NCBI GenBank assembly: GCA_946555455.1
Contig: CAMNSU010000003.1
Span: 900 to 64,899 of the forward strand
Direction of reading: 5' to 3'
Length of the DNA: 64,000 nt
From: an uncultured Clostridia bacterium
GTDB taxonomy: Bacteria; Bacillota; Clostridia; RUG12999
The notes under the pieces were generated by a model. That model had not been told where the DNA came from, searched no databases, and saw nothing but the letters and a program-made list of their open reading frames with translations. Below are positions 7,115-7,663 of the stretch, piece after piece (positions within the stretch are counted from its first letter, which is position 1; every line of letters begins with the position of its first letter). A program made the position numbers and the translations under genes.

Positions 7115-7663
7115 TTATGGATGATAAATCTTCCGGCGGATTTCATCTTCCAGCAACTCCGGCACCAGTCCTTCCAGACTGCCGTTATAGCTGGCGAGTT
7201 CCCGCACGATACTCGAACTGAGGAAAGAATATTTGTCGCTTGTCACCATGAACAATGTTTCAATGTCAGGTGCAAGTTTTTTATTCATCAACGCCATTTG
7301 AAATTCATATTCAAGAGACACTCTTTCCCTACACGACGCTCTTCCGATCTCCATTTGAAATTCATATTCAAAGTCGGACATGGCGCGCAAACCTTTTACA
7401 ATAATTCCTGCCTGTTTGTGATGCAGATAATCCACAAGCAGTCCGTCAAAGGTATCAATTTCCACTTGCGGATATGCGGCAGTGACGCGGCGAAGCATGT
7501 CCATACGTTCTTCTACGGTAAAAGTAGGCTGCTTTGAACTGTTGCGCAGCACTGCCACCACCAGTTTGTCAAATTTATCCGCCGCACGGATAATAATGTC
7601 CAAATGACCGTTGGTAACAGGGTCAAAACTCCCTGGGTATACGGCAATACGCAACTGTATCAA
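7115..7663 (-). CDS. coaD: phosphopantetheine adenylyltransferase CoaD, carrying an in-frame 57-nt artefactual insertion
   Basis: CoaD motifs [31 protein letters not shown] and SSS.VRE. The start is TTG, either at 7663 or at 7654 giving M-RIAVYPG. The protein is about 19 aa longer than usual because of the insertion at 7315-7371. Confidence 0.9.
7318..7350 (+). other. Illumina TruSeq universal adapter sequence (ACACTCTTTCCCTACACGACGCTCTTCCGATCT) embedded in the assembly
   Basis: Exact 33-nt match to the TruSeq universal adapter / read-1 primer. It is flanked by a duplicated 21-mer CCATTTGAAATTCATATTCAA at 7294-7314 and 7351-7371. On the coaD strand it translates to the inserted [13 protein letters not shown](LEYEFQ). 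Confidence 0.9.

Follow-up and report, generated by a model that had tools for sequence, protein, structure and literature searches.

The coaD gene of the uncultured Clostridia bacterium represented by contig CAMNSU010000003.1 contains a short segment identical to an Illumina library adapter, and the question raised by this locus is whether the segment belongs to the genome of the organism or was introduced on the way from the sequencing library to the deposited contig. Throughout, the window is the whole stretch of 64,000 nucleotides that was analysed. The first-pass annotation regarded the segment as a chimeric-read assembly artefact and not as biology. The artefact part of this claim is borne out by assemblies of the same strain that do not have the block, and we put the probability that the 57-nt block is an untrimmed Illumina adapter artefact, and not part of the genome of the organism, at about 0.97. 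As to how the block arose, the chimeric read has a plausible competitor. The features on which the argument depends are as follows.

7115–7663, minus strand: ORF of coaD (pantetheine-phosphate adenylyltransferase, PPAT), recognized by TIGR01510, PF01467, orthologues of 160 aa and PPATs in the PDB.
7294–7314, plus strand: copy 1 of the 21-mer CCATTTGAAATTCATATTCAA, genomic, at the end of the left-hand segment; clean alleles hold the 21-mer once.
7318–7350, plus strand: Illumina TruSeq read-1 adapter/sequencing-primer site ACACTCTTTCCCTACACGACGCTCTTCCGATCT, matched over 33 of 33 nt with 0 mismatches.
7351–7371, plus strand: copy 2 of the 21-mer CCATTTGAAATTCATATTCAA, immediately 3' of the adapter's ...GATCT.
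7315–7371 (equivalently 7294–7350), no strand assigned: the 57-nt block to remove, a single 57-column gap with identical flanks in the alignment with clean alleles.

On the plus strand, positions 7290–7380 read AACG-CCATTTGAAATTCATATTCAA-GAG-ACACTCTTTCCCTACACGACGCTCTTCCGATCT-CCATTTGAAATTCATATTCAA-AGTCGGACA, in which the three bases GAG (7315–7317) separate copy 1 from the adapter and only 36 nt lie between the two copies of the 21-mer. The adapter occurs once in the window, and a tolerance of 3 mismatches adds no further site; with the same tolerance it was matched in 0 of 100 dinucleotide-preserving shuffles. Scanning both strands of the window returned the 21-mer at two sites only, and the repeat is exactly 21 nt long, copy 1 lying between G and G and copy 2 between T and A. 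The pair is also the sole exact short-range direct repeat of at least 16 nt in the 64 kb. The surplus over a single copy amounts to 57 nt, or 19 codons, which contain no stop codon and are in frame with coaD. The exact 33-nt adapter, the unique direct duplication on its two sides and the in-frame gain of 19 aa had all been pointed out in the first-pass annotation, and each of them withstood the re-analysis. Elsewhere in the window no 12-mers of other adapters or primers (TruSeq index adapter, P5, P7, Nextera, MGI) were present, and a whole-window scan for PhiX and other adapters gave nothing above chance 12-mers. The mis-join scan of the window recorded one further short-range duplication, a 15-mer pair 111 nt apart.

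The consequences of the block are visible in the product of the gene. As assembled, the coaD ORF encodes 182 aa from the first TTG. It matches TIGR01510 at 197.2 bits (cut-off 103.3; 1.5e-58), the match being broken into two stretches at the block, and it matches PF01467 at 101.8 bits and PPATs of the PDB with a best value of 2.9e-44. Instead of a single uninterrupted domain of ~155–170 aa with one SDFEYE(F/L)Q motif, the as-assembled protein carries the motif twice. The duplication of EYEFQM noticed at first pass is real, and both copies align to the same residues, 98–103, of 4nah_A, the enzyme of S. aureus; the repeat is therefore a duplication around foreign sequence and not a lineage-specific loop. 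The matched solved PPAT structures are 155–187 aa long, and the 19-residue insert is absent from all of them. The block splits a conserved helix motif of this essential enzyme. Deletion of the 57 nt in silico restores the sequence common to all the independent assemblies and a 160-aa CoaD identical to the database protein P0002. The true CoaD product is 160 aa long, and the record's coaD call is in error.

A protein search with the CoaD of the window returned 7,999 relatives. Among the homologues aligned from these matches, the only one with the 19 extra residues is P0001, a protein of 179 aa with NCBI and ENA as sources and a single 77,883-nt contig behind it, evidently the gene as called in the public version of this record, with its start at the TTG at 7654. 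The next-best matches (P0002 to P0009 and P0012) are 160 aa long, and P0002 is identical to the CoaD of the window, residue for residue, outside the block. The close orthologues, with 78–100% identity outside the block, are all of 160 aa and without the 19 residues. It had been predicted from the letters alone that the annotated protein would prove about 19 aa too long, and the comparison of lengths gave this outcome (160 versus 179 aa). Among the matches listed, 108 more distant CoaD relatives range from 151 to 273 aa. The longest of these lengths is that of P0013 (273 aa, on a 1,230-nt ENA contig), a CoaD homologue of another organism in which a partial N-terminal copy of ~85 aa is followed by a low-complexity linker and a full, slightly divergent second copy; it is probably another assembly artefact, e.g., a join of strain variants.

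An independent assembly of the same strain, the Logan assembly of SRR33116340 (L001), covers window positions 3665–12654 with 8,933 nt at 100% identity and 0 mismatches, and differs only in being without the 57 nt. The overlap between its two alignment pieces is the 21-mer and nothing more, which means that this assembly has one copy of the 21-mer and no adapter. The uninterrupted 101-nt junction is present in six independent assemblies, namely L001 and five more (L002, L003, L004, L005 and L163, drawn from ERZ14499241, SRR31801357, ERZ777306, ERZ14499246 and SRR28581604), and neither chimeric junction was found in those five. Absence from independent assemblies of the same genome is what adapter contamination predicts. 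Six relatives with 2–8% DNA difference around the locus (L006 to L011, including GCA_949742335.1) are also without the block.

The three bases in front of the adapter give a further indication of its origin, as they can be read as the end of a library index.

7310–7317, plus strand: TTCAAGAG, inferred i5 index of a dual-indexed TruSeq-type library, the same 8-mer as the index in contig L135.

The first five of these bases, TTCAA (7310–7314), are the last 5 nt of copy 1 and are equally readable as the start of the index. Only GAG (7315–7317) is unambiguously non-genomic, as the genome goes on with AGT; nor is it the end of P5, which is …GATCT. The comparison comes from another public MAG, in which the tip of contig CAMNUC010000029.1 (L135) reads TCTACAC-TTCAAGAG-ACACTCTTTCC, in the canonical order of P5, index and adapter. 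A scan for GAG plus adapter, with one genome per GTDB species, gave 30 matches, and all 30 in these GTDB representatives sit at contig tips with the adapter directed inward. Where the upstream context is long enough, it consists of …GATCTACAC, an 8-nt i5 index and the adapter. Seven distinct GAG-ending indices were seen, which gives a chance of ~0.7% that the five preceding bases match one of them. The 8 nt before the adapter in the window equal the i5 index of L135, with five of the eight also genomic and the P5 part missing: P5 (…GATCTACAC) is absent upstream of TTCAAGAG in the window, and the bases found there are genomic (ATTCATA). From this comparison, the foreign segment would consist of an i5 index plus the 33-nt adapter, and GAG would not be random filler. 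The reverse complement CTCTTGAA is the form of the same index on instruments that read i5 in reverse. An origin of GAG in the universal adapter of single-index libraries (…GAGATCT), with the loss of 4 nt, had also been considered, and was dropped once TTCAAGAG was found in its canonical context.

Adapters at contig tips are common in public data: of 123 copies in IMG/VR, 115 are no more than 150 nt from the end of a contig and face inward, the same geometry as that of the adapter and copy 2 in the window. The internal form was sought in a recurrence scan for adapters in which position -11 holds a base other than the canonical one, and this gave 30 internal copies. Five of these 30, the window included, have an in-register duplication of the start of the insert upstream of the adapter. 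The five duplications are as follows.

L208: 22 nt.
L273: 22 nt, followed by TCT.
The window: 21 nt, followed by GAG.
L177: 11 nt.
L181: 9 nt, followed by ATCT.

In all five, the gap of 0–4 nt between duplication and adapter matches the 3' end of the upstream part of the adapter. The background for the longest common substring in these comparisons is 6–10 nt. Where contig names could be identified among the metagenome matches, they are of the SPAdes-style NODE type. The internal joined-adapter architecture is a recurrent artefact class. It is about an even chance that the window exemplifies a general signature, in which an internal adapter with 0–8 nt of index or P5 upstream and an in-register duplication of ~9–24 nt would result when assemblers or scaffolders of short-read metagenomes join adapter-capped contigs to their neighbours, and would be missed by end-trimming.

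Several other arrangements were encountered in the same scans. A 38.8-kb 'viral' contig (IMGVR_UViG_3300045988_159093; L057) has two adapters head to head at 1142–1215, ~1.1–1.2 kb from its start, and the sequences on either side of the pair are probably mis-joined. In three ENA metagenome contigs (L192, L254 and L258), internal adapters each follow AACCGAGATCT, a 10-nt part of P5 in which A replaces the expected C at -11; the upstream sequence is apparently unrelated, there is no duplication of the flank, and the recurrent A may partly reflect the search filter. A RefSeq contig of Streptococcus mitis (NZ_CAMHYY010000070.1; L142; 232 nt, cov 261) consists of a T-run, full P5, the i5 index TCTAGGAG, the adapter and then non-adapter sequence, so that no fewer than 90 of the 232 nt derive from the library and escaped screening. 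Adapter-capped tips were numerous in the MEGAHIT (k141) contigs of one marine MAG study (CAXRCC01, CAXRGH01, CAXRAF01 and CAXRBI01; L134, L138, L140, L143, L144, L148–L150, L155–L157, L160 and L161). There the i5 index is AGTGAGAG wherever it is complete, which indicates that adapters were left untrimmed throughout the data set before assembly. The ERZ14630xx assemblies of one ENA study (within L173–L292) include dozens of SPAdes contigs that are adapter-capped, some of them at both ends, and the adapter is preceded by ACAC and a 7-nt tag (ACCTAGG, TCTCCAT or CCTGCGA), which looks like an untrimmed custom index design of 7 nt.

How the adapter could have come to lie inside a contig can be reconstructed from the order of its parts. 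A short library fragment would have started at base 7351, the first base after the adapter's ...GATCT; since the 3' end of the adapter abuts the first base of the insert, a sequenced fragment begins at this position. The reverse read would have gone past the end of the short insert, taking in the adapter and then part of the i5 index; only a reverse read that outruns a short insert in this way can show the adapter. If adapters were not trimmed, a contig or graph branch beginning ...(TTCAA)GAG-adapter-CCATTTG... would have been produced, of a kind met at hundreds of contig tips in public assemblies. The preceding contig would have ended 21 nt beyond the start of the fragment (...CCATTTGAAATTCATATTCAA). 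The two ends may then have been merged via a spurious 5-nt overlap, TTCAA, which in the genome is followed by AGT and in the index by GAG, and the true overlap of 21 nt would have been missed, hidden as it was behind the adapter cap. Such a spurious join would keep the adapter and leave the 21-mer present twice. The 57 bases would be in frame and stop-free by chance, and a block of this kind leads gene callers to an intact but false CoaD of 179 aa, in which EYEFQM is duplicated around an adapter-encoded peptide of 12 residues. Entry through a join made by the assembler or scaffolder is the route that we slightly favour. The SPAdes scaffolder presumably takes very short perfect overlaps if no longer one is found (gap-joining code). 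Against a join as the full account, the duplication is 21–22 nt long in three of the five in-register cases, which hints at a k = 21 effect that a join alone does not predict.

A physically chimeric library molecule or read, formed by PCR template switching or a similar process and then faithfully assembled, would still be an artefact, and as the source of the block it is possible, though we hold it to be rather doubtful. In that event single raw reads would span ...AACGCCATTTGAAATTCATATTCAAGAGACACTCTTTCC... or contain AACGCCATTTGAAATTCATATTCAAGAGACACTC. Template switching occurs at short homologies such as the 5 nt TTCAA of the left junction, and de Bruijn assemblers normally need reads with every junction k-mer, both of which speak for a real molecule. 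A strand ending in the 21-mer, however, anneals better to a perfect match of 21 nt than to 5 nt of an index, and a random chimera is unlikely to return to its own locus, in unchanged orientation and only 21 nt away. The recurrence of the in-register geometry in unrelated assemblies also points to a systematic process, though none of these arguments is decisive. Slippage inside one amplicon between copies of TTCAA was rejected as the sole cause, as its product would have P5, index and adapter upstream of copy 1, where the genome is found.

Less probable again is a k = 21 de Bruijn loop, or gap-filling or polishing after assembly, with the 21-mer as the vertex shared by the adapter branch and the path of the genome; some other post-processing step within the artefact verdict is likewise improbable. 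The smallest default k in both SPAdes and MEGAHIT is 21. In line with a loop, the first 21-mer of the fragment that is wholly genomic is precisely the duplicated one, and two other public cases have 22 nt. Such a loop, however, needs k-mers that lead from the 21-mer into GAG and the adapter, which are missing from normal read-through reads, and unitigs stop at a branching vertex; the remaining in-register cases have 9 and 11 nt.

A genuine insertion, by a mobile element with target-site duplication or by engineering, shares with real transposable elements the foreign segment bracketed by directly repeated target sequence, and the ORF is neither closed nor shifted out of frame, but this likeness is superficial and the probability is vanishingly small: the 36-nt insert is synthetic, a probable library index remnant followed by the adapter as an exact 33-nt oligonucleotide, with no coding capacity, no transposase and no inverted terminal repeats or other inverted repeats at the block; the 21-mer and adapter occur nowhere else in the window, the identical strain is without the block in six other assemblies, the insert is absent from the aligned CoaD homologues and the solved PPATs, and it would break up a helix motif that is conserved in this essential enzyme. 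A repeat of 21 nt also exceeds the typical length of a target-site duplication.

Illumina adapter contamination is a known class of problem, and the novelty of the present case is only that of a tidy example of its rarer and less-discussed internal form. An exact adaptor match of 33 nt is of the type that VecScreen/UniVec and FCS-adaptor are built to catch, and the window resembles the spans flagged by these screens in holding an exact catalogued synthetic oligonucleotide within submitted sequence. It is unlike the usual flagged spans in that the record evidently reached the public collections (P0001 in NCBI and ENA). These screens mask the adaptor alone, and the duplicated 21-mer and the three presumed index bases would remain, so masking alone would not restore coaD. 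In the MGnify genome catalogues, adapters concentrate at the extremities of contigs, and it is argued that adapter contamination breaks contigs and that the remedy is trimming of contig ends (Moeller et al., 2024, BMC Genomics 25:1033; PMC11536531). Like those cases, the window has the same adapter in the same orientation to the insert, with probable index remnants beside it, as index or P5 remnants lie beside theirs, in short-read metagenome assemblies of the ENA/MGnify type. Unlike them, the adapter of the window lies 7.3 kb inside the contig, in a gene and in frame, with a 21-nt duplication, and end-trimming would miss it. The portion of a 2026 BMC Genomics article considered here (PMC13182109) describes contamination of GenBank by Oxford Nanopore adapters and barcodes, with terminal patterns, and cites VecScreen/UniVec and FCS-adaptor for adaptor screening (refs 2, 4, 11, 12). 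To judge from that portion, the likeness to the window lies in synthetic library sequence that reached deposited assemblies through incomplete trimming, and the platform and oligonucleotides differ.

The surroundings of coaD and the rest of the window were also surveyed. Two conserved ORFs flank the gene, at 6586–7146 on the minus strand and at 7929–8510 on the plus strand, and neither has a Pfam match; the former has a sub-threshold NCBIfam match only and the latter has no NCBIfam match. The ORF at 6586–7146 (186 aa) overlaps the 3' end of coaD by 32 nt and is 152 aa long from an internal ATG in relatives, and the ORF at 7929–8510 (193 aa) is called as 180 aa in relatives. Further along, at 33042–47377 on the plus strand, three consecutive and very large ORFs of 2,554, 926 and 1,297 aa all have S-layer homology (SLH) domains. 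The ORF of 2,554 aa also has seven aBig_2 repeats and F5/8 type C, metallophosphoesterase and chitobiase C-terminal domains, and that of 1,297 aa has CBM96 and a heparinase II/III C-terminal domain. The SLH ORFs, a GH123-like ORF at 24674–26398 and an AraC-type regulator at 26552–28828 together look, by their predicted domains, like a cell-surface glycan-degradation locus. No tRNA genes and no Rfam families at gathering threshold were found in the 64-kb window (1–64000).

For the organism itself the block has no biological significance, and its practical significance is modest. Adapter contamination is not confined to contig ends, since an internal in-frame copy survives end-trimming. If the general signature proposed above is true, such joins corrupt genes and, where they are in frame, seed protein databases with adapter-encoded peptides. 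The probable leftover index TTCAAGAG suggests that artefacts of this kind can carry information on the provenance of the library. Masking of the 33-mer alone leaves an insertion of 24 nt (8 codons), made up of GAG and the duplicated 21-mer, and the repair is the deletion of 7315–7371. The false P0001 of 179 aa is already in public protein collections, where alignments and HMM building for the species would be distorted by it, as would variant calls and structure predictions.
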